The notes under the pieces were generated by a model that had not been told where the DNA came from, made no database searches, and saw nothing but the letters and a program-made list of their open reading frames with translations. From contig CAYLJX010000004.1 of assembly GCA_964384235.1 (NCBI GenBank), forward strand, positions 81,916-132,302: 50,387 bases of DNA, written 5' to 3'. This stretch comes from an uncultured Bdellovibrionales bacterium (GTDB lineage: Bacteria; Patescibacteriota; Minisyncoccia; Moranbacterales; UBA1568). This document shows, one piece after another, positions 965-44,736 of the stretch. The position numbers and the translations under genes are program-made. Position 1 is the stretch's first letter. Each line of letters starts with the position of its first letter.

Positions 965-1672
965 CTACGCTTCGCGCATGAGCACTTCTTCGACGTTCGG
1001 CAGGAAAAACTGGGCGATCGCGCGGGTTTCCTCGGCATCGAAACCGCTGAATTCCCGATAGTTCGGATCGAGCGTGATACCGGAGCGGAAGGTCTGAAGA
1101 TACAGCCGCTTCGCCCCATGGAGGGTGTCGCGCATCATTTCGAGAATCTCCGGTGTGTGTACCTCGCGGATGAGCGTAGTGCGGAACTCGTAGTCCACCG
1201 GTTCTCCCTTGAGGAATTCCACGCTCTCCCGGATACGCATGCTGTCCGCCCAGTGTCCCGCAAGCCGCTTGTAGTCCGGGAGGCTCGTCTTGAAATCCAT
1301 CGCCACGTAGTCGACGAGCCCCTTGTCCACAAGCGTCCGCAGGACATCGGGTTTGTTGCCGTTGGTATCGAGCTTCACCTTGAATCCCATCTCCCGTACC
1401 TTCACGATGAAATCTTCCAAACCACGCATGATGGTCGGCTCGCCGCCGGTGATGACGACGCCCTGGAGCATACCTCGCCGTTTCTCGAGAAAGTTGAGCA
1501 CCGTCTCTTCCGGGATGAAGCTCGATTTCAGCTTGGCGAGCTCTTCCGGCAGGACGAACTCGGGATTATGACAGAAACCGCAGCGGTAGTTGCACCCGCC
1601 CGTAAACACGATGCACGCGGTGTGCCCCGGAAAATCGAGCAGGGTGAACTTTTGGATACCGCTGATGATCAT
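965..1672 (-). CDS. nrdG: Anaerobic ribonucleoside-triphosphate reductase activating protein (radical SAM)
   Basis: 235-aa ORF with the N-terminal radical-SAM cluster motif 'CNYRCGFCHNP'. Lies directly downstream of the nrdD pieces on the same strand. Confidence 0.88.
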   Translation of the reverse strand: MIISGIQKFTLLDFPGHTACIVFTGGCNYRCGFCHNPEFVLPEELAKLKSSFIPEETVLNFLEKRRGMLQGVVITGGEPTIMRGLEDFIVKVREMGFKVKLDTNGNKPDVLRTLVDKGLVDYVAMDFKTSLPDYKRLAGHWADSMRIRESVEFLKGEPVDYEFRTTLIREVHTPEILEMMRDTLHGAKRLYLQTFRSGITLDPNYREFSGFDAEETRAIAQFFLPNVEEVLMREA

Positions 1673-1689: not shown

Positions 1690-1953
1690 TTAGCAGGCTG
1701 AAAGCTCATACTTCTTGCAGAAATCATGGTTGGCCGCGACAGTCTCCTGGAAGTGCTTGCGGGAATAGTGCTCGGATTTCTTGCCGATATTGAAGTGGGA
1801 GACCGGGCGGTGATACCCCATCACGCGGGTCCAGACCTCGCAGCGCGTCCTCCCGCCCGCATCGTTTCCCGAAGCGTTTCGGACAGGCTTCTCCTCCATT
1901 TTCCCCATCACTCCCTTTTCTTCCCCCTTTACCCCTTTTTCCTCGTGCGACAT
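1690..1953 (-). CDS. Stand-alone glycyl-radical loop module of class III RNR (NrdD C-terminal fragment encoded as a separate ORF)
   Basis: 87-aa ORF. 'TRCEVWTRVMGYHRPVSHFNIGKKSEHYSRKHF' matches the NrdD radical loop (compare E. coli TRRVCGYLGSPDARPFNAGKQEEVKRRVKH). The N-terminal ~35 aa are K/E/G low-complexity. It is in a different frame from nrdD, with an in-frame TAA at 1972-1974. Internal ATGs (M16, M19) behind an AAGGGAG-like purine run could be the real start. Confidence 0.7.
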   Translation of the reverse strand: MSHEEKGVKGEEKGVMGKMEEKPVRNASGNDAGGRTRCEVWTRVMGYHRPVSHFNIGKKSEHYSRKHFQETVAANHDFCKKYELSAC

Positions 1954-2044
1954 ATTTTTTGTCGTTACGTATTACTTTTTAATCTCGCTTTTCTTTCTTC
2001 TATTGGATCCCCGCCTTCGCGAGGATGATCCTTCTTTGGTAGGA

Positions 2045-4162
2045 TCACTTGGCGGCCGCCTGACTCGCATAGATCTTGCGCGTTTCCTGGTCATAGCGCT
2101 CCCCGTCGACGATGTCGAGCTCTTTGTCGCATTTCGGACAGAAATCGTGTTCACCGGCGAGGTAGCCGTGCTTGGGACAGATCGAGAAGGTCGGCGTGAT
2201 GGTGATATACGGCAGACGGAAATTGGAGAGAACGCTCCGCACCAGGCTGCGACAAGCCGTACCGGAACTGACCTTTTCGTTCATGTAGCAGTGGAGCACC
2301 GTGCCGCCGGTATACTTGGTCTGGAGTTTGTCCTGGAGCTCGAGCACCTCGAAGACATCGTCCGTGTATCCCACCGGCACCTGCGAGGAATTGGTGTAGT
2401 ACGGAGCCGCGTCCGTCCCGGCCTGAAGGATCTCCGGGAAGCGCTTCTTGTCTTCCTTGGCGAAACGGTAGGTCGTCCCCTCGGCCGGCGTCGCCTCGAG
2501 ATTGTAGAAGTTATTGGTCTCTTCCTGATAGTCCTTGATCTTTTCCCTCATGAAGTCGAGCACTTCTTCGGCGAACCGCTGCCCCCACTCGGTAGTGATG
2601 TTTTCCTTGTCGTCCGTGAAGTTCCGGATGGCTTCGTTGAGACCGTTGATACCGATCGTGGAGAAATGGTTCTTGAGGTACCCGAGGTAGCGTTTGGTGT
2701 ACGGGAAGAGGCCGCGGTCGATCCACTGCTGGATGGTCTTACGCTTGAGCTCGAGGGACGTCTTGGCCAGCTCCATGAGATAACCGACGCGCTCGAGGAA
2801 CTTTTCCTTGTCCCCCTTGGCGAGATGCCCGATGCGTGCCGCATTGATCGTGACGACACCGATCGATCCGGTCATCTCCGCCGACCCGAAGAGTCCGCCG
2901 CCGCGCTTGCGCAGTTCGCGGAGATCGAGTTGCAACCGGCAGCACATGGAGCGTACGTCGCCGGGATTGAGGTCGGAGTTGATGAAGTTCTGGAAATACG
3001 GCGTCCCATACTTGGCCGTCATCTCGAAGAGCGGGAGGTTCTTCGTATCTTCCCAATCGAAGTCCTTGCCGATGTTGTAGGTCGGGATGGGAAAGGTGAA
3101 AGTACGGCCGCGCGCGTCACCACGACTCATGATCTCGATGAAGGCGCGGTTGATGATGTCCATCTCGTTCTGGAGTTCGCCGTAGGTGTAGGCGAAGGGT
3201 TCGCCGCCGAGGAGAAGCCGCTTCTCGCGCATATCCGCCGGACAGTCCCAGTCGAGAGTGATGTTGGTGAAGGGAGTCTGCGTCCCCCAGCGCGACGGGA
3301 TGTTGAGGTTGAAGACGAACGACTGGATGTTCTGGTAGACGTACTCGTACACTTTGTCCGTGACATACTTCTCCTTGGCCTCTTCGGAAACAAAGATGAC
3401 CGCATACTTTTCGATATCGTCACGCAGTTCCAATTCGTATTTCTTCACGAAAGGCGCGAGATAGGTGTCGAAGCTCGAGAAGGCCTGAGCACCCGCCCAC
3501 TCGTTCTGGAGCGTCCCGAGAAAATTGACCATCTGCGAGACCGCCGAGGAGAGGTGCTTGGGCGGAGCGGACTCCACCTTGTTGGGCACGCCGTTGAAGC
3601 CTTCCTCGAGGAGCACCCGGAGACTCCAGCCGGCGCAGTAGCCGGAGAACATGTCGAGATCGTGGATGTGGTAGTCACCGTTCCGATGCGCGTCGCCCAC
3701 CGCTTTGGGATAGATGTGCGAGAGCCAGTAGTTGGCGATGACGCCGCCGGCGGTGTTGAGGATGAGGCCGCCGAGGGAGTAACCTTGGTTGGAGTTGGCA
3801 TTGACGCGCCAGTCGAGTTTTTCGAGGTACTCGCGCACCGCCTTCTCCACTTCCACCACCACGTTCTTGTCCTCGCGCACTTCGCGGCGCTTCTCACGGT
3901 AGAGGATGTAGGCCTTGGCGATATCGGCGTAGTCGTAGCGGATGAGCGTCTCCTCGACCTGGTCCTGGACCTGCTCGACCGTCGGGATCTTGTCTTTGAA
4001 GGCGGTTTCCAATTCATTGAGGACATCCTCGGCCAGCACGCGGGCTGTCACGGCATCCTTCTTCTCGACCGCCTCGGCCGCCTTCTCGATGGCTGTCTCG
4101 ATTTTTCCGAGGTCGAAGTCGACGATGCTGCCGTTGCGTTTCTGGATCTTGCAGATGGGCAT
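2045..4162 (-). CDS. nrdD: Anaerobic ribonucleoside-triphosphate reductase, large piece (ATP-cone + barrel + Zn site, lacking the glycyl-radical loop)
   Basis: 705-aa ORF. N-terminal ATP-cone (MPICKIQKRNGSIVDFDLGKIETAIEKA), class III RNR core, C-terminal 'CPKH-x11-CPKC' zinc site. Terminates 25 aa later without an RVxGY motif. Confidence 0.92.
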   Translation of the reverse strand: MPICKIQKRNGSIVDFDLGKIETAIEKAAEAVEKKDAVTARVLAEDVLNELETAFKDKIPTVEQVQDQVEETLIRYDYADIAKAYILYREKRREVREDKNVVVEVEKAVREYLEKLDWRVNANSNQGYSLGGLILNTAGGVIANYWLSHIYPKAVGDAHRNGDYHIHDLDMFSGYCAGWSLRVLLEEGFNGVPNKVESAPPKHLSSAVSQMVNFLGTLQNEWAGAQAFSSFDTYLAPFVKKYELELRDDIEKYAVIFVSEEAKEKYVTDKVYEYVYQNIQSFVFNLNIPSRWGTQTPFTNITLDWDCPADMREKRLLLGGEPFAYTYGELQNEMDIINRAFIEIMSRGDARGRTFTFPIPTYNIGKDFDWEDTKNLPLFEMTAKYGTPYFQNFINSDLNPGDVRSMCCRLQLDLRELRKRGGGLFGSAEMTGSIGVVTINAARIGHLAKGDKEKFLERVGYLMELAKTSLELKRKTIQQWIDRGLFPYTKRYLGYLKNHFSTIGINGLNEAIRNFTDDKENITTEWGQRFAEEVLDFMREKIKDYQEETNNFYNLEATPAEGTTYRFAKEDKKRFPEILQAGTDAAPYYTNSSQVPVGYTDDVFEVLELQDKLQTKYTGGTVLHCYMNEKVSSGTACRSLVRSVLSNFRLPYITITPTFSICPKHGYLAGEHDFCPKCDKELDIVDGERYDQETRKIYASQAAAK

Positions 4163-4235: not shown

Positions 4236-4265
4236 AAATAAAAAAGGTGTCGTCACGACACCTTT
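4236..4265 (-). terminator. Rho-independent terminator after the sigma-factor gene
   Basis: Minus strand reads AAAGGTGTCGTGACGACACCTTTTTTATTTT: a GC-rich hairpin followed by a U-run. Confidence 0.7.
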
Positions 4266-4294: not shown

Positions 4295-5368
4295 TCAACT
4301 TCCTTCGAGGCTTTTCTTGAGCTTCTTTCTGGCGCGGCTGAGGGAGAGTTTGACGGCGTTTTCGCTCTTCCCGAGCATCGAGGCGATTTCCTGGAGGGAA
4401 AAGCCCTCCCGGTACTTCAGAGACAACATCTTCCGCTCGGATTCATTCAAAACAGGCGCCTCCCAAAGGAAGCTTGCCGGGGAAAGATCATACCCCGATT
4501 CCACCTCGTAGACCTCGTTTTCCAGGAAGAGAGGCTGTTTCTTACGGAAGTGATTAAGGAGGACACTGTGCGCCACCCGCTGCAGGTAGGTGCCATACGA
4601 GGCATTGGAAGACTGGAAGCCGGACAGGTAACGGAACGCTCGATAAAAAGTGTCCTGCGCCAGATCCTCCGAAAGCTCCTCGTCGCACAGATGCCGCAGG
4701 AAGTGCCGCCTCACCTGGTGACGGTATTTCTCATAGAGTGCCTGAAACCGCTTCGGATCGGTCTGTGCCGCCAGGAGGAGTTCCCGATCATCCTCACGCG
4801 AGCGGAACCGCTCCTTGGTCGGCTCCACGAGATCCTCATGGAGAATATCCGCAAGCGTTCGGATTTCAGCGGAATCGGTCGACTCACGCGTCCCGATCGC
4901 CCGAAGCAGCCAGTTTCGCCGTTCTGTTTCAGTAGCCCGCCTCCCGCCGAAAACATGCCTGAATTCATTCGTGAAACGCTCCCGATCGTCCTCCCGTACC
5001 AGATGCCCTACCTGCAGAGCGATGAAGTATCCGATTCCGCCCTGCTTGTCCGCAATCGGAGCGACCGCGAGGAACTCCGGGTATCGTTTCTTGTCTTTGC
5101 GCGCGTTGGTGATCGGGGAAACGAACGGTTCCCGCCGTTCCTCGATGGTCTCCCAAAAAGCGTCATAGAACGCCCGGGGCATGTGCCCGCCCCAGAGTTT
5201 CCCCGGCGCCTTGCCGACCACTTCTCCGAGCGAAAATCCCGTCCGTCTCTCCACGGCGCCATTGGCATAGAGCGCCGTCCCGACGGAGTCCGTCAACAAA
5301 AAAACGCCCCCTGCGGTATCGAATGCCTGTTTAGTGAGAGTGGGGAGAGTAGTCATATTCTCCATCAT
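4295..5368 (-). CDS. PAS-domain fused RNA polymerase sigma-70 family (ECF-type) sigma factor
   Basis: 357-aa ORF. The N-terminal ~120 aa look PAS-like (LYANGAVERRTGFSLGEVVGK..PGKLWGG..). The C-terminal half has sigma region 2 (DLAQDTFYRAFRYLSGF) and region 4 HTH (ESERKMLSLKYREGFSLQEIASMLGKSENAVKLSLSRARKKLK). Confidence 0.8.
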   Translation of the reverse strand: MMENMTTLPTLTKQAFDTAGGVFLLTDSVGTALYANGAVERRTGFSLGEVVGKAPGKLWGGHMPRAFYDAFWETIEERREPFVSPITNARKDKKRYPEFLAVAPIADKQGGIGYFIALQVGHLVREDDRERFTNEFRHVFGGRRATETERRNWLLRAIGTRESTDSAEIRTLADILHEDLVEPTKERFRSREDDRELLLAAQTDPKRFQALYEKYRHQVRRHFLRHLCDEELSEDLAQDTFYRAFRYLSGFQSSNASYGTYLQRVAHSVLLNHFRKKQPLFLENEVYEVESGYDLSPASFLWEAPVLNESERKMLSLKYREGFSLQEIASMLGKSENAVKLSLSRARKKLKKSLEGS

Positions 5369-6205: not shown

Positions 6206-6298
6206 AGCGTCTATAAGAAATACATCTTTCCAAGAGACATGTTTCAGGGAAAAGAAAAAGTTACCTGCTTTCCGTTCGAATCCCGTTCCCATCACACA

Positions 6299-6329
6299 AA
6301 ACAAAAAGAAGGATCCTGGAATCCTTCTT
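6299..6329 (-). terminator. Rho-independent terminator after the tRNA-Asp 3' fragment copy
   Basis: Minus strand AAGAAGGATTCCAGGATCCTTCTTTTTGTTTTG: hairpin plus U-run. Same flanks as the terminator at 6468..6502, but with a different stem sequence. Confidence 0.7.
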
Positions 6330-6358
6330 TTGTTTAATGGGCGGGAGCGACGGGATTC
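6328..6358 (-). repeat. Direct 31-nt copy of the tRNA-Asp 3' end (T-loop half, T-stem 3' strand, acceptor 3' strand, trailer)
   Basis: ttttgtttaatgggcgggagcgacgggattc is identical at 6328..6358 and 6501..6531 (173-nt period). Confidence 0.9.
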
Positions 6359-6467
6359 CTCCTCCCCCCATCGCTTCGGCAGAGCCTCCACGGTTCCTCC
6401 GGAGCCTGGGTTTTCAAAAAGCCAAGCAGTTGGCTTTTTGAAATACCCTTCTCATCCGTCGTCTGAC

Positions 6468-6502: not shown

Positions 6503-6514
6503 TTGTTTAATGGG

Positions 6515-6588
6515 CGGGAGCGACGGGATTCGAACCCGCGACCTCGACAGTGACAGTGTCGCGCTCTAACCAGCTGAGCTACGCCCCC
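6515..6588 (-). tRNA. tRNA-Asp (anticodon GTC), CCA not encoded
   Basis: Folded by hand: GGGGGCG/CGCTCCC acceptor (one G-U), D arm GCTC..GAGC, anticodon stem CGACA/TGTCG with loop CTGTCAC, T arm GCGGG-TTCGAAT-CCCGT, discriminator G73. Confidence 0.9.
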
Positions 6589-6593
6589 ATGTT

Positions 6594-7010
6594 TTATTGC
6601 AAACGATCCTTTACCGCGTTCCGGAGCTTTTCGCGTACCGCTTCGACTCTTTTCGTTTTGTCGCTCGCGATGCTTCTCCAGGCTTCCAGGTATTCTCTCG
6701 CCAAATCCTTCATCAAGACTCCCTCGTTCATACCCTGGAGCACCTCCCATGAGACACCGCTTTCGCTTACCAGGGCCTCGAACGCGGCCTTCTCGTTACT
6801 CCCTTCTTCGAAACCATCCCCGAAACCGAAGGACTCCAAAACGGTCTTCTTCGGATCACCGGATTCGAGAGTGGTTTTCCGTGATACCTCTGAAGATCGC
6901 GATGTGTCCCGAAACGTCATTCTCCCTGCTTCCATCATTCCTCTCTTCAGAACTTCCGGGGCCGGTTTCTTTTGTTCTGGTTTTCCTGTCGCAGGTGTTT
7001 CAAATGGCAT
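6594..7010 (-). CDS. Hypothetical protein (138 aa) wedged between two tRNA genes
   Basis: ATG start 20 nt after tRNA-Met(CAT), behind a purine-rich GAGAGAAGAAAGAA. Stop lies 5 nt before tRNA-Asp. Charged, disordered-looking N-half and helical-looking C-half. No recognisable motif. Confidence 0.5.
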   Translation of the reverse strand: MPFETPATGKPEQKKPAPEVLKRGMMEAGRMTFRDTSRSSEVSRKTTLESGDPKKTVLESFGFGDGFEEGSNEKAAFEALVSESGVSWEVLQGMNEGVLMKDLAREYLEAWRSIASDKTKRVEAVREKLRNAVKDRLQ

Positions 7011-7030
7011 ATTCTTTCTTCTCTCGTTTG

Positions 7031-7104
7031 TAGCAGGGGCGAGACTCGAACTCGCGACCTCAGCGTTATGAGTGCTGCGTTCTAGCCAGCTGAACTACCC
7101 TGCC
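7031..7104 (-). tRNA. tRNA with CAT anticodon (elongator Met or Ile2/lysidine type), CCA not encoded
   Basis: GGCAGGG/CCCTGCT acceptor, D arm GTTC..GAAC, anticodon loop CTCATAA, T arm GCGAG-TTCGAGT-CTCGC, A73. Confidence 0.85.
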
Positions 7105-7170
7105 ATGAGTTTTCCAAAACAACACCAAAAAACAGCGTGAAACGCTTGTTCCACTATACCGAACCCCGAC

Positions 7171-9003
7171 CTATTCGTCAATGAATCCCCCGGTCTGGCG
7201 GCTCCAGAGTCTGGCGTACAGGCCGTTCCTCGCGATGAGCGCATCATGGGTCCCCTCCTCTTCGGTCCGGCCATCCCGGTCGAGCACGACGATGCGGTCG
7301 AGCTTGCGCACCGTGGAGAGACGATGGGCGATAACGAGAGCGGTCTTGCCCCGCATCAGGTCGTCGAGCGACGCCTGGATAGCATGTTCGCTCTCCGAAT
7401 CAAGCGAGCTCGTCGCCTCGTCGAGAACGAGGATCGGCGCGTTCTTGAGAATCGCGCGAGCGATGGCGATACGCTGGCGCTGGCCGCCGGAGAGCTTGAC
7501 CCCGCGCTCCCCCACCAGCGTGTCATACCCCTGCGGCAGCGAGGCGATGAATTCGTCGGCATGCGCTTTCTTCGCCGCCTCCATGATCTTTTCCCGGGAG
7601 CTTTTCGGTCGGCCGTACCCGATGTTCTCGGCGATACTCCGATGAAAGAGCGCCGTGTCCTGCGGGACATATGCGATCGTCTCGCGCAGATCCTCTTCGC
7701 CGAGTCCCATGATGTCTCGTCCGCCGATGCGGATCGTACCACCCTGCGGTAGGACGAAGCGCAGAAGGAGTTTCGTGAGCGTACTCTTCCCCGATCCGGA
7801 TACCCCAACCAGTCCCACTTTCTCACCGGAGGAAATATCCAAAGAAAAATCCTGAAAGACCGGCGACCCCTTCTCATAACGGAACGTCACGTCATCGAAT
7901 GAAACGGCCGCCCCTGACAACCGGGATCCGTTCGGATTGACGATCGTTTCGGCATCGTGCCGTTCCATGATCTCGATCATCTCCGTCGCATCCGCGGCAT
8001 TCTTGACAAACCGCCCAAAAGCCCGACCGAGTGAAAAGAGTTCAAAAAACAGAAGTCCTGTGTAGACCTGGACGAGAACGACGGTTCCGGCACTCACCTC
8101 GCCGGCGATCCACAACCGGATCACGACATACATCACAGCAATCTCCAGCGTAGCGAACATGAGAGTCAGCGCGGCTATCAGGATGTTCCTGAAACGCCAC
8201 GCCCGGATACGGGTCCGCTCGTCCTTTTCTGCTATGACCGAAAAATGTTCTCTCTCCCTTTCCGCCGAGGCAAAGGTCTTCACCGTGAGAATATTGGTAA
8301 GCGCGTCGGAAAACGTTCCCGTGACGACGGAGTCCTGCGCCGCGCTTTCTTTGTCATACGGAAGACTCTTGCGCGTGATCCAGAGCGCGACCAAGATATA
8401 GACCGGGATCCACAGAAGGAACACCACCGCGATTACCGGCTTGATGAGAAAGAGCGCTACGATGGTCCCGGTCAGGGAAACAGCTGGCATCCAGAAGTTG
8501 AAGACGACGATATCACAGAGATCCTCGAAGGCGCGCACGTACCGCCTGGCCTGCGCAACGAGACTCCCTGTGAAACGATCGGTGAAAAACGAATATCCCT
8601 GACGCATGAACGACTCGAACGCCCGGTTGTTGAGATGCTCGATCGTCTTGCTCTGCGCGGATATGATGAGAAAGTCCCCAAGACGGTACATGCCCTGGTA
8701 AAAAATGATGACTCCGACAAGAAGGCCGAAGGAACCCATGAGCGAATCCGCGACTGCGGCACGGTCGGAAGCGGCGGAAATCGTATCAATGATCCGTCGG
8801 TAGACAAGCGGGGAAACCGTCCCACCACCAAGCGTCGCCAAAGCATACACCAAAAGCATGAGAAAATATGTCCTGCGATGCCGTTTCGCCGAAATAAGGT
8901 AAGACGAGAAAATCCGTCCGAAGGAAAAATGTTTCGATTGAGACTGCGATATTTCAGGCATATGAGACAAAAAACCTGCGGACTTGCAGGTTTCTCTAAT
9001 CAT
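7171..9003 (-). CDS. ABC exporter, fused permease/ATPase (MsbA-type)
   Basis: Six-TM N-half. Walker A GVSGSGKST, signature LSGGQRQR, Walker B ILVLDEATS. The first 14 codons overlap a terminator-like hairpin (8964..8994), so ATG 8961 (MPEISQ..) may be the true start. Confidence 0.88.
   Translation of the reverse strand: MIRETCKSAGFLSHMPEISQSQSKHFSFGRIFSSYLISAKRHRRTYFLMLLVYALATLGGGTVSPLVYRRIIDTISAASDRAAVADSLMGSFGLLVGVIIFYQGMYRLGDFLIISAQSKTIEHLNNRAFESFMRQGYSFFTDRFTGSLVAQARRYVRAFEDLCDIVVFNFWMPAVSLTGTIVALFLIKPVIAVVFLLWIPVYILVALWITRKSLPYDKESAAQDSVVTGTFSDALTNILTVKTFASAEREREHFSVIAEKDERTRIRAWRFRNILIAALTLMFATLEIAVMYVVIRLWIAGEVSAGTVVLVQVYTGLLFFELFSLGRAFGRFVKNAADATEMIEIMERHDAETIVNPNGSRLSGAAVSFDDVTFRYEKGSPVFQDFSLDISSGEKVGLVGVSGSGKSTLTKLLLRFVLPQGGTIRIGGRDIMGLGEEDLRETIAYVPQDTALFHRSIAENIGYGRPKSSREKIMEAAKKAHADEFIASLPQGYDTLVGERGVKLSGGQRQRIAIARAILKNAPILVLDEATSSLDSESEHAIQASLDDLMRGKTALVIAHRLSTVRKLDRIVVLDRDGRTEEEGTHDALIARNGLYARLWSRQTGGFIDE
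8964..8994 (-). terminator. Terminator-like hairpin plus U-run immediately upstream of the probable ABC exporter start
   Basis: Minus strand GAAACCTGCAAGTCCGCAGGTTTTTTGTCTCATATG. Confidence 0.5.
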
Positions 9004-9068
9004 CTAATCAAAAGACGATACTTCACTTCCGTCAGAGGCGGACAGGCGTTGCGGGGGTAGTAAAATTG

Positions 9069-9089
9069 CTTGTTGCGGGGGTGGGATTC
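9069..9089 (-). repeat. Direct 21-nt copy of the tRNA-fMet 3' end
   Basis: cttgttgcgggggtgggattc is identical at 9069..9089 and 9178..9198 (109-nt period). A third 11-nt copy, gttgcgggggt, sits at 9049..9059. Confidence 0.9.
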
Positions 9090-9181
9090 CCTTTCAGGCC
9101 TGGGCATCGCCAGAGGCTCACCCTTCTCATCCCACCGCGAGCCAAGCAGTTGGCTCGCTCCCCTTCACTTCGTTTCACTTG

Positions 9182-9255
9182 TTGCGGGGGTGGGATTCGA
9201 ACCCACGACCTTGTGGTTATGAGCCACACGAGCTGCCAGACTGCTCTACCCCGCT
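9182..9255 (-). tRNA. tRNA-Met (CAT), initiator-like, CCA not encoded
   Basis: AGCGGGGTAGAGCAG..CTCATAA..GTGGGTTCGAATCCCACCCCCGCAA. Has a 1:72 A/A mismatch and A11:U24, as in bacterial initiators, but only two of the three usual G-C pairs at the base of the anticodon stem. Confidence 0.85.
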
Positions 9256-9427
9256 ATATCGCGCTTTCGCGCTCCAATTTCCAAGAACCAAGCACCAATT
9301 TCCAAAAAAATCTACTTTCCGATCCTTGCAAACCTCATGATAGCACGGTTTCGGATTCCAGTCATTTTGACCGTATTTGTTTCTTGGAATTTGGTTATTG
9401 GTTCTTCCGTGCCTATGGCACGGCTTG

Positions 9428-9501
9428 TGGGTGATCCAAGACTCGAACTTGGGACCTCGACATTATCAGTGTCGCGCTCTAACCACCTGAGCTAATCACC
9501 C
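9428..9501 (-). tRNA. tRNA-Ile (GAT), CCA not encoded
   Basis: GGGTGAT/ATCACCC acceptor, anticodon loop CTGATAA, T arm CCAAG-TTCGAGT-CTTGG, A73. Confidence 0.92.
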
Positions 9502-9558
9502 GTTTCTCGCATGAAAAATATTCTACCAAAAACCACGGAAAAATCAAGAGCTACCGAA

Positions 9559-9583
9559 ATGTGGACCCGGGCAGGAATCGAAC
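9559..9583 (-). repeat. Diverged copy of the tRNA-Ala T-arm 3' half plus acceptor 3' strand
   Basis: Minus strand GTTCGATTCCTGCCCGGGTCCACA versus the genuine GGTTCGAATCCGCTCGGGTCCACA, 47 nt upstream. Confidence 0.8.
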
Positions 9584-9607
9584 TACTCGGCCTTCGGCCT
9601 GCGTTTG

Positions 9608-9680
9608 TGGACCCGAGCGGATTCGAACCGCTGACCCCCGCATTGCAAATGCGGTGCTCTACCAACTAAGCTACGGGCCC
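9608..9680 (-). tRNA. tRNA-Ala (TGC), CCA not encoded
   Basis: GGGCCCG/CGGGTCC acceptor with G3:U70, anticodon loop TTTGCAA, T arm AGCGG-TTCGAAT-CCGCT, A73. Confidence 0.92.
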
Positions 9681-44524: not shown

Positions 44525-44652
44525 AGCAAAACATCTTTGGTCCCGTCCGCGTCCCGACGAAACATCGGGACTCAGACGACAGACCGTTAAAAAGAAAAAA
44601 ATGATTTACGACGAAAGATGTTCCTTGAAAAACAGAAACATGATTTACGTTG

Positions 44653-44736
44653 TGCCCTAGGGGAGACTCGAACTCCCATGTGATTGCTCACGCTAGCACC
44701 TGAAGCTAGTGCGTCTACCAATTCCGCCACCAGGGC
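44653..44736 (-). tRNA. tRNA-Leu (CAG), class II, CCA not encoded
   Basis: GCCCTGG/CTAGGGC acceptor, anticodon loop TTCAGGT, long variable arm CGTGAGCAATCACAT, T arm GGGAG-TTCGAGT-CTCCC, A73. Confidence 0.9.

Follow-up and report, generated by a model that had tools for sequence, protein, structure and literature searches.

A naturally split class III ribonucleotide reductase whose predicted glycyl-radical domain is encoded by a small separate gene

The stretch of DNA considered here (the window, 50,387 nt in full) comes from contig CAYLJX010000004.1 of an uncultured Bdellovibrionales bacterium placed by GTDB in the Patescibacteriota, and contains a gene cluster for a class III ribonucleotide reductase (RNR) in which the catalytic protein NrdD appears to be divided between two genes. 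A large open reading frame (ORF) for NrdD, a small ORF and the gene for the activase NrdG follow one another on the minus strand (Table 1), at the positions and in the order given by the original prediction, which was made from the sequence alone. The junction also has the features described there: the two ORFs are separated by a 91-nt spacer, the small ORF lies in a different frame from nrdD and an in-frame TAA (1972..1974) is located ahead of it. A scan of the window found no terminator-like site between nrdD, the small ORF and nrdG, and the three genes are therefore read as one operon. The NrdG protein scores 199.4 bits against the NrdG2 model TIGR02495 (cut-off 131, E 3e-59), matches Pfam Radical_SAM and Fer4_12 as well, and has the CxxxCxxC cluster motif of radical S-adenosylmethionine (SAM) enzymes near its N-terminus (GGCNYRCGFCHN).

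Table 1. Features of the split nrd operon, with positions in the window.
Feature	Position	Strand	Remarks
nrdD, large chain	2045..4162	minus	705 aa; class III RNR core without the radical glycine
ATP-cone of NrdD	3881..4150	minus	Pfam
Finger loop SMCCRL, Cys407/408	2939..2947	minus	alignment with T. maritima NrdD
Zinc site C662-x2-H665-x9-C675-x2-C678	2129..2179	minus	residues 662-678, CPKH-x9-CPKC
Conserved 27-aa tail of large chain	2048..2128	minus	
nrdD stop codon TGA	2045..2047	minus	
Spacer between nrdD and small ORF	1954..2044	minus	91 nt
Small ORF, stand-alone glycyl-radical domain	1690..1953	minus	87 aa from ATG 1953
Conserved core of small ORF, RTRCEVWTRVMGYHRPVSHFNIGKKSEHYSRKHFQE	1744..1851	minus	residues 35-70
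Gly46 of small ORF (RVMGY)	1816..1818	minus	predicted radical glycine
nrdG, radical-SAM activase	965..1672	minus	235 aa; begins 17 nt past the small-ORF stop

The large ORF matches Pfam NRDD (PF13597) over profile positions 2-530 of 562 (E 1e-175, 585.8 bits, cut-off 26.2) with an ATP-cone in front, and passes the curated NrdD cut-offs of TIGR02487 (454.6 bits, cut-off 326) and NF006126 (1094 bits, cut-off 548). It can be aligned with the NrdD of Thermotoga maritima (PDB 4COI) as far as residue 610 (CPVCGK); its SMCCRL segment at residues 404-409 corresponds to SCCRL of the T. maritima protein, and C662, H665, C675 and C678 correspond to the C..H...CPVC site. The spacing within this zinc motif is x9 and not the x11 first reported, and the chain ends 27 residues, rather than 25, beyond it; the RVxGY radical motif is absent from the large ORF. 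The segment ETRKIYAS of the tail had been taken for a decayed copy of the TRCEVWTR strand of the small ORF, but comparison of 19 tails from the candidate phyla radiation (CPR) with the small-protein profile by hhalign gave a probability of 0.1%, and the tail proves to have a conserved motif of its own. The CPR large chains share a conserved tail of 27-29 aa after the zinc site, with the motif CD-x-E-L/I-G ... D-x3-R-K/E-x-Y/H/F-x-S ... K, and the proteobacterial ones have a shorter CDE-x-LL tail. The large chains of 58 other split loci, from CPR to Proteobacteria, are 57-86% identical to that of the window, and the finger-loop cysteines, the zinc site and the ATP-cone are kept; the large ORF has therefore been selected as an enzyme.

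The small ORF takes up the NRDD profile where the large one leaves it. Its residues 36-68 match profile positions 531-562 (E 2e-7, 30.4 bits, above the same cut-off of 26.2), so that the profile is shared out cleanly between the two ORFs, and the NCBIfam models are divided in like manner; an apparent overlap of 8 NCBIfam positions results from the DKELDIV segment of the large chain being stretched onto the profile, not from ETRKIYAS. NRDD is the sole Pfam match at E <= 1, and the Gly_radical family of the pyruvate formate-lyase (PFL) type (PF01228) does not match the small ORF. Alignment with T. maritima NrdD covers residues 609-647 (GKAKVDEYMRIVGYLVPVSAFN...), which include RIVGY, and the identification of the small ORF as the NrdD radical loop is thereby borne out by the profile check. 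Among 25 relatives of the small ORF the segment RVMGYHRPVSHFNIGK, which includes the RVxGY-type motif and the PV..[FW]N.GK segment, is invariant or nearly so across phyla; their core consensus is R-T-R-C-E-V-W-T-R-V-M-G-Y-H-R-P-V-S-x-F-N-x-G-K-K-x-E-H, and 28 columns of the alignment are invariant. The N-terminus is variable, and the K/E/G stretch of the protein in the window is lineage-specific. Seven CPR relatives were compared, and for five of them the proportion of nonsynonymous differences (pN) is 0.01-0.05 and that of synonymous differences (pS) 0.4-1.2, with synonymous sites near or at saturation; against the two more distant ones pN is 0.13-0.15. On these estimates the small ORF is under strong purifying selection, and Gly46 is predicted to be the residue on which its product carries the glycyl radical. 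An AlphaFold2 (AF2) model of the small chain alone, from a 25-sequence alignment, has a mean predicted local distance difference test (pLDDT) score of 56.6, with the loop below 50; such a poorly predicted fold fits a piece that folds on its partner.

The same arrangement is found in many other bacteria. A species-level scan, with one genome per species, gave at least 590 matching stretches, and 84 loci were analysed (L001-L004 and the best 80 of these stretches). A short ORF carries the radical motif in 81 of the 84; 77 of these split loci have an nrdD large chain directly upstream and 75 have an nrdG homologue downstream, so that the gene order nrdD, small ORF, nrdG recurs as the original prediction would have it. 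No radical domain was found on the partner large chain in the window or in the 77 related loci. Hosts of split loci include CPR phyla, Pseudomonas, Stutzerimonas, Halomonas/Billgrantia, Thiobacillus, Thiocapsa, Ectothiorhodospira, Thiomargarita, Omnitrophota and Thermoflexus (Chloroflexota). A database search with the small ORF returned 2385 relatives, the best 120 of which are 55-83 aa long except for one of 138 aa, and the best matches come from Moranbacteria, Magasanikbacteria, Uhrbacteria, Gracilibacteria and others. Independent gene calls in Magasanikbacteria (on a 984-kb contig) and Gracilibacteria give 706 aa, 55/56 aa and a radical-SAM nrdG, with spacers of 38, 95 and 201 nt, and those of the closest relative give 705, 82 and 235 aa. 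The small chain has about 70-87 aa in the window, compared with 48-66 aa in Proteobacteria. When the large chain was searched exhaustively and without a profile, 1237 cluster representatives (50% identity) were obtained at E <= 1e-30. Among the best 150, which were classified, 74 end shortly after the zinc site without a radical domain, 60 have one (59 by pattern search and P0513, added by eye) and 16 are fragments or mistranslations. The split NrdD is not CPR-specific but also occurs in Gamma- and Betaproteobacteria, Omnitrophota, Chloroflexota and others, in hundreds of species including Pseudomonas aeruginosa, and is considerably more general than was proposed at first.

In P. aeruginosa the small chain has 48 aa (MNPNQLPEGQRQRCEVWTRVMGYHRPVAAFNAGKQSEHRERRHFRETR) and is found on at least 1000 contigs. 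In one strain (L090), the 48-aa ORF is located 43 nt past a 675-aa NrdD, the tail of which reads ...CPKCDEELLQRSTPKSCCGGCGG and has no RVxGY, and overlaps nrdG (232 aa) by 4 nt. The megaplasmid pHG1 of Cupriavidus necator H16 encodes a 676-aa 'ribonucleoside triphosphate reductase', a 66-aa 'nrdD' and nrdG, the last two overlapping by 17 nt. The small gene is also found on chromids and megaplasmids of Ralstonia (132 records), Bradyrhizobium and Paracoccus, and phage copies were absent from 50,697 phage records. RefSeq and UniProt hold hundreds of the mini-proteins, labelled 'anaerobic ribonucleoside-triphosphate reductase', 'oxidoreductase' or 'hypothetical protein', the RefSeq names being derived from the Pfam match only; neither NCBIfam nor Pfam has a dedicated model. 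A more distant domain-less form, L088, has a 1066-aa intein-bearing NrdD with a variant zinc site (CPYPHT, in CPYPHTE...) and, 45 nt downstream of nrdD, an ORF for the radical domain (6246..6425; about 51 aa, 59 codons from stop to stop; MSKRRVKLIPCEVYSRVVGYYRPVSHWNTGKQQEF...). No gene was called for this mini-ORF, so gene finders miss some of them.

Three of the 84 loci, all from actinomycetes (Occultella and one metagenome-assembled genome, MAG), have a fused NrdD, in which a single chain runs ...CPRC-x11-CEVWTRVMGYHRPV.... Since these fused proteins belong to the same clade, the small chain is homologous to, and colinear with, the ordinary C-terminal domain. In a rough neighbour-joining tree, which has no outgroup root and no support values, split and fused forms are interleaved and the fused actinomycete proteins are nested between the CPR and proteobacterial split groups; the split or fused state has probably changed more than once.

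The interpretation put forward here, to which a probability of about 0.85 is assigned, is that the window encodes an obligate two-chain class III RNR, the small chain bearing the radical. The 705-aa chain would supply the ATP-cone, a barrel of ten strands that holds the cysteine finger loop, and the zinc ribbon. With SAM, NrdG would abstract a hydrogen from the small chain's Gly46. The loop of this chain would lie inside the large-chain barrel, in the place that the C-terminal domain has in one-chain NrdD. The docked loop would then make a thiyl radical on the finger-loop cysteine and so start nucleotide reduction. Docking, activation on the small chain and an advantage in repair would follow by analogy from what is established for NrdD, PFL and the stand-alone radical protein GrcA (YfiD) of Escherichia coli. 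The one-chain NrdD of phage T4, E. coli and T. maritima (PDB 4COI/4U3E) belongs to the same family, has the same NrdG partner and has its elements in the same order, namely ATP-cone, barrel, cysteine finger loop (of the SCCRL type in T. maritima), zinc ribbon and RVxGY loop. In the split form, by contrast, the radical loop is on a separately translated chain and the large chain has a conserved tail of its own.

Other enzymes resemble the split NrdD in one respect or another. In the class II RNR of P. aeruginosa, which also carries a split NrdD, the catalytic subunit is likewise spread over two adjacent genes, a large barrel chain (NrdJa) and a C-terminal piece (NrdJb), but the RNR class and the cofactor are different. 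Small accessory chains are also found in multi-chain glycyl-radical enzymes, as the beta and gamma subunits of benzylsuccinate synthase and the gamma subunit of 4-hydroxyphenylacetate decarboxylase. In those enzymes the radical glycine is on the large chain and the small chains are Fe-S or structural, whereas in split NrdD the radical glycine is on the small chain.

Oxygen cleaves glycyl-radical proteins at the radical glycine, and a likely benefit of the split would therefore be that a cheap chain of 5-10 kDa is lost and replaced and the 80-kDa core is reused. In a large clade of class III RNRs that crosses phyla and takes in P. aeruginosa, C. necator and many CPR bacteria, the small chain might then be an obligate, exchangeable 'radical cartridge' of 5-10 kDa, activated by NrdG possibly off the enzyme, docked and swapped after oxygen damage, an extension that is tentatively given a little less than an even chance. 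Facultative anaerobes or denitrifiers from the boundary between oxic and anoxic zones are numerous among the hosts of the split type, and the small ORF is commonly coupled translationally to nrdG; both are consistent with cheap replacement of the small chain and neither proves it.

The alternative that survives best, although improbable, is that the small protein serves as a genuine spare for a full-length NrdD encoded elsewhere and that the truncated large ORF is inactive or repurposed. Stand-alone radical domains that rescue oxygen-damaged PFL are well established (PMC8683613, PMC13450708), and the original prediction had likened the small ORF to GrcA/YfiD. This analogy stands as far as the stand-alone radical module is concerned: as with GrcA and Y06I of phage T4, the small chain would be expected to be activated by a cognate radical-SAM activase and to plug into the barrel of another chain. 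It fails for the spare role, because GrcA replaces the damaged domain of an enzyme that has a radical glycine of its own, and the large chain of split NrdD has none although it is conserved as an enzyme across phyla; the small chain is so taken to be an obligate subunit. The small ORF also matches Pfam NRDD and not the Gly_radical family of PFL. There is no second nrdD or further radical domain in the 50-kb window, the three genes are next to one another in nearly every case, with frequent overlaps, as in P. aeruginosa and pHG1, and the nrdD-nrdG region of pHG1 is required for anaerobic growth of C. necator on nitrate, as recounted in PMC2864759. What speaks for a separate use is a set of three loci from rumen and gut MAGs (L070 3905..4213, L077 and L082), in which an orphan small radical-domain ORF (Pfam NRDD 531-562) has neither nrdD nor nrdG within 4 kb. 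These orphans are located just after an ATP synthase operon, and a 678-aa ORF that follows them has no Pfam, NCBIfam or PDB match; either their partner genes are unlinked or they have a different use.

A second alternative is that the two ORFs are joined by programmed recoding (stop codon readthrough, selenocysteine insertion, frameshifting or ribosomal bypass) to give a single-chain NrdD. The ORFs are colinear and close, about one third of the proteobacterial loci have them in one frame, and the spacer of the window contains two adjacent hairpins beginning at the nrdD stop codon (1954..2050, -27.2 kcal/mol, z = -3.9) and not followed by a U-run. That one third is, however, the chance expectation for a random frame relation, and the spacing ranges from overlap to about 200 nt across loci. 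In DNA alignments with the relatives L085 and L005 the coding flanks are conserved and the spacer is not, in sequence or in length, and no Rfam element matches the spacer with E below 0.1. The nrdD stop is at the identical codon position in the window and its two closest relatives, as TGA in the window and in one of them and as TAA in the other. The large chain of a gracilibacterial locus with genetic code 25 (L045), the nrdD of which has 19 in-frame TGA codons, ends at a TAA near 3934 and is still split. An AAGGAG or GGAGG Shine-Dalgarno site is found 5-9 nt before the small-ORF ATG in 11 of the 14 split loci examined, although not before ATG 1953 of the window. Random frames, varied spacing, own Shine-Dalgarno sites, differing stops and the code-25 genome therefore exclude sequencing error, stop codon readthrough or insertion of selenocysteine and a fixed signal for frameshifting or bypass, so that recoding in any form is judged very improbable; the small ORF is, by these signals, translated on its own.

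Two further observations concern these loci. One of the TGA codons of L045 stands where the zinc-site segment has a conserved glycine (HGYVI-TGA-EHDF); this locus clearly uses genetic code 25, with TGA read as glycine. The unrelated spacer sequences of relatives also bear strong inverted repeats (a 16-bp palindrome at L005 3926..3965; L085, about 3960..3980), and stem-loops between the two cistrons may fix the ratio in which the large and small chains are made.

Post-translational joining of the two chains, by a split intein or another ligation, to give an ordinary one-chain enzyme is less probable still. It has in its favour that nrdD often hosts inteins: numerous large-chain relatives have 1000-1879 aa and match the query in 3-6 separate stretches (P0395-P0544; the 1342-aa ORF of Thiomargarita, L084; L088), which is consistent with one to several inteins in nrdD, and one of them, L088, has a Pfam Intein_splicing match. 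Neither ORF of the window has an intein family match, however, nor are there room or motifs for one at the chain ends: the large chains end 12-27 aa past the zinc site, the small chains begin with a variable N-terminus of 5-35 aa and the junction residues are not conserved Cys, Ser or Thr. Last, the idea that nrdD is really one continuous gene, interrupted by an error in sequencing or assembly or turned into a pseudogene by a recent break, might be suggested by indels in metagenome assemblies and by the adjacency of the ORFs and their colinearity with one-chain NrdD, but has practically no chance of being correct, since the break is shared by 81 of the 84 loci, taken from independently assembled genomes and cultured strains of several phyla, by the P. 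aeruginosa contigs and by the finished plasmid pHG1, both parts are under strong purifying selection, the large chains have conserved tails of their own and fusion in the window would need two stops removed and a change of frame. The profile matches, the synteny and the selection thus agree with the original prediction that this class III RNR is naturally split.

Some points weigh against the two-chain interpretation or against parts of it. ATG 1953 of the window has no obvious Shine-Dalgarno site and the true start of the small ORF is uncertain: the candidates are ATG 1953 (87 aa), 1908 (72 aa) and 1899 (69 aa), GGGAG is located ahead of the latter two, and the start of the nearest relative is within a few codons of 1953. 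As to how the small chain is held, a zinc bridge in which Cys38 of its CEVW segment would complete the CxxH/CxxC site found no support; the equivalent cysteine is also present in fused relatives, many of which have Thr, Ala or Pro at this position, and Thiomargarita has Thr. The economy of repair, though likely, is argued by analogy, from the cleavage of glycyl-radical enzymes by oxygen only. As to novelty, literature searches, with exact phrases included, found no description of a split NrdD, in line with the original prediction, which was aware of none, but earlier notice is possible in older nrdD papers on Pseudomonas or Alcaligenes.

The published accounts covered place the architecture outside what is recognized in them. 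According to a 2026 review, the formate lyases alone among the classes of glycyl-radical enzymes have spare-part radical proteins (PMC13450708). The only split RNR recognized in the literature covered is the class II NrdJa/b (PMC4520616), and RNR reviews and phylogenies mention no other (PMC9669993, PMC9531940, PMC4390871, PMC4009431). The genome paper of C. metallidurans CH34 gives NrdDG as Rmet_5137 and Rmet_5139 and leaves Rmet_5138, located between them, unmentioned (PMC2864759); the PLSDB gene table lists no feature under the small-ORF match on the CH34 chromid. Work on P. aeruginosa similarly refers to 'nrdDG' (PMC5645315). What is new seems to be the recognition of the split architecture and not the ORF itself, which annotation pipelines have already catalogued.

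The C-termini of relatives show additional variation. Short Cys-rich tails (CCGGCGG, CCN, CCVG, CNCLG, CKACKG and similar) are common among the split-type large chains, as in L090 of P. aeruginosa, L032, L033, L035 and L041 and in P0396, P0401, P0404, P0405, P0416, P0434, P0480 and P0538, and resemble the C-terminal cysteine pair that serves as redox shuttle in class I and II RNRs. With the radical domain on a chain of its own the C-terminus is free, and such a tail might thereby be possible; the large-chain tail of the window itself has no cysteine. Among fused-type proteins, L087 (3001..5397), P0402, P0408, P0423, P0439, P0442, P0443, P0462 and P0476 have an extra glutaredoxin/NrdH-like domain about 120-155 aa past the radical loop, which resembles a reductant domain built into the enzyme.

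Directly upstream of the nrd operon, at 4295..5368 on the minus strand, is a gene for a PAS domain fused to a sigma-70 factor of the extracytoplasmic function (ECF) type with regions 2 and 4, and an equivalent gene is also upstream of nrdD in the closest relative, L085. The protein is a candidate regulator of the operon that would sense oxygen or redox state. A strong hairpin with a T-run lies between this gene and nrdD at 4243..4265. Six tRNA genes (Asp-GTC, two Met-CAT, Ile-GAT, Ala-TGC and Leu-CAG) are located on the minus strand at 6511..9680 and 44652..44736. The Ile-GAT/Ala-TGC pair is usually found in the spacers of rRNA operons, but no rRNA was detected anywhere in the window.

The split form is common, as about half of the 150 nearest 50%-identity large-chain clusters have no radical domain. 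If the small chain is an obligate and exchangeable cartridge, this would be the first glycyl-radical enzyme with its radical site on a separate, obligate chain, and the genetics and biochemistry of 'nrdDG' would have to be reread. The class III RNR is important to P. aeruginosa in anaerobic growth, in biofilms and in infection. This enzyme and the denitrification-linked one of C. necator would need a protein of 48-66 aa that is unmentioned in published 'nrdDG' work, and heterologous expression, deletion design and inhibitor screens should take the small protein in. The mini-ORFs merit a family model and a name of their own. The split NrdD would further provide a natural system in which the access of the activase to a buried glycine, the docking of the radical domain and the repair of oxygen damage by exchange of the small chain could be studied.

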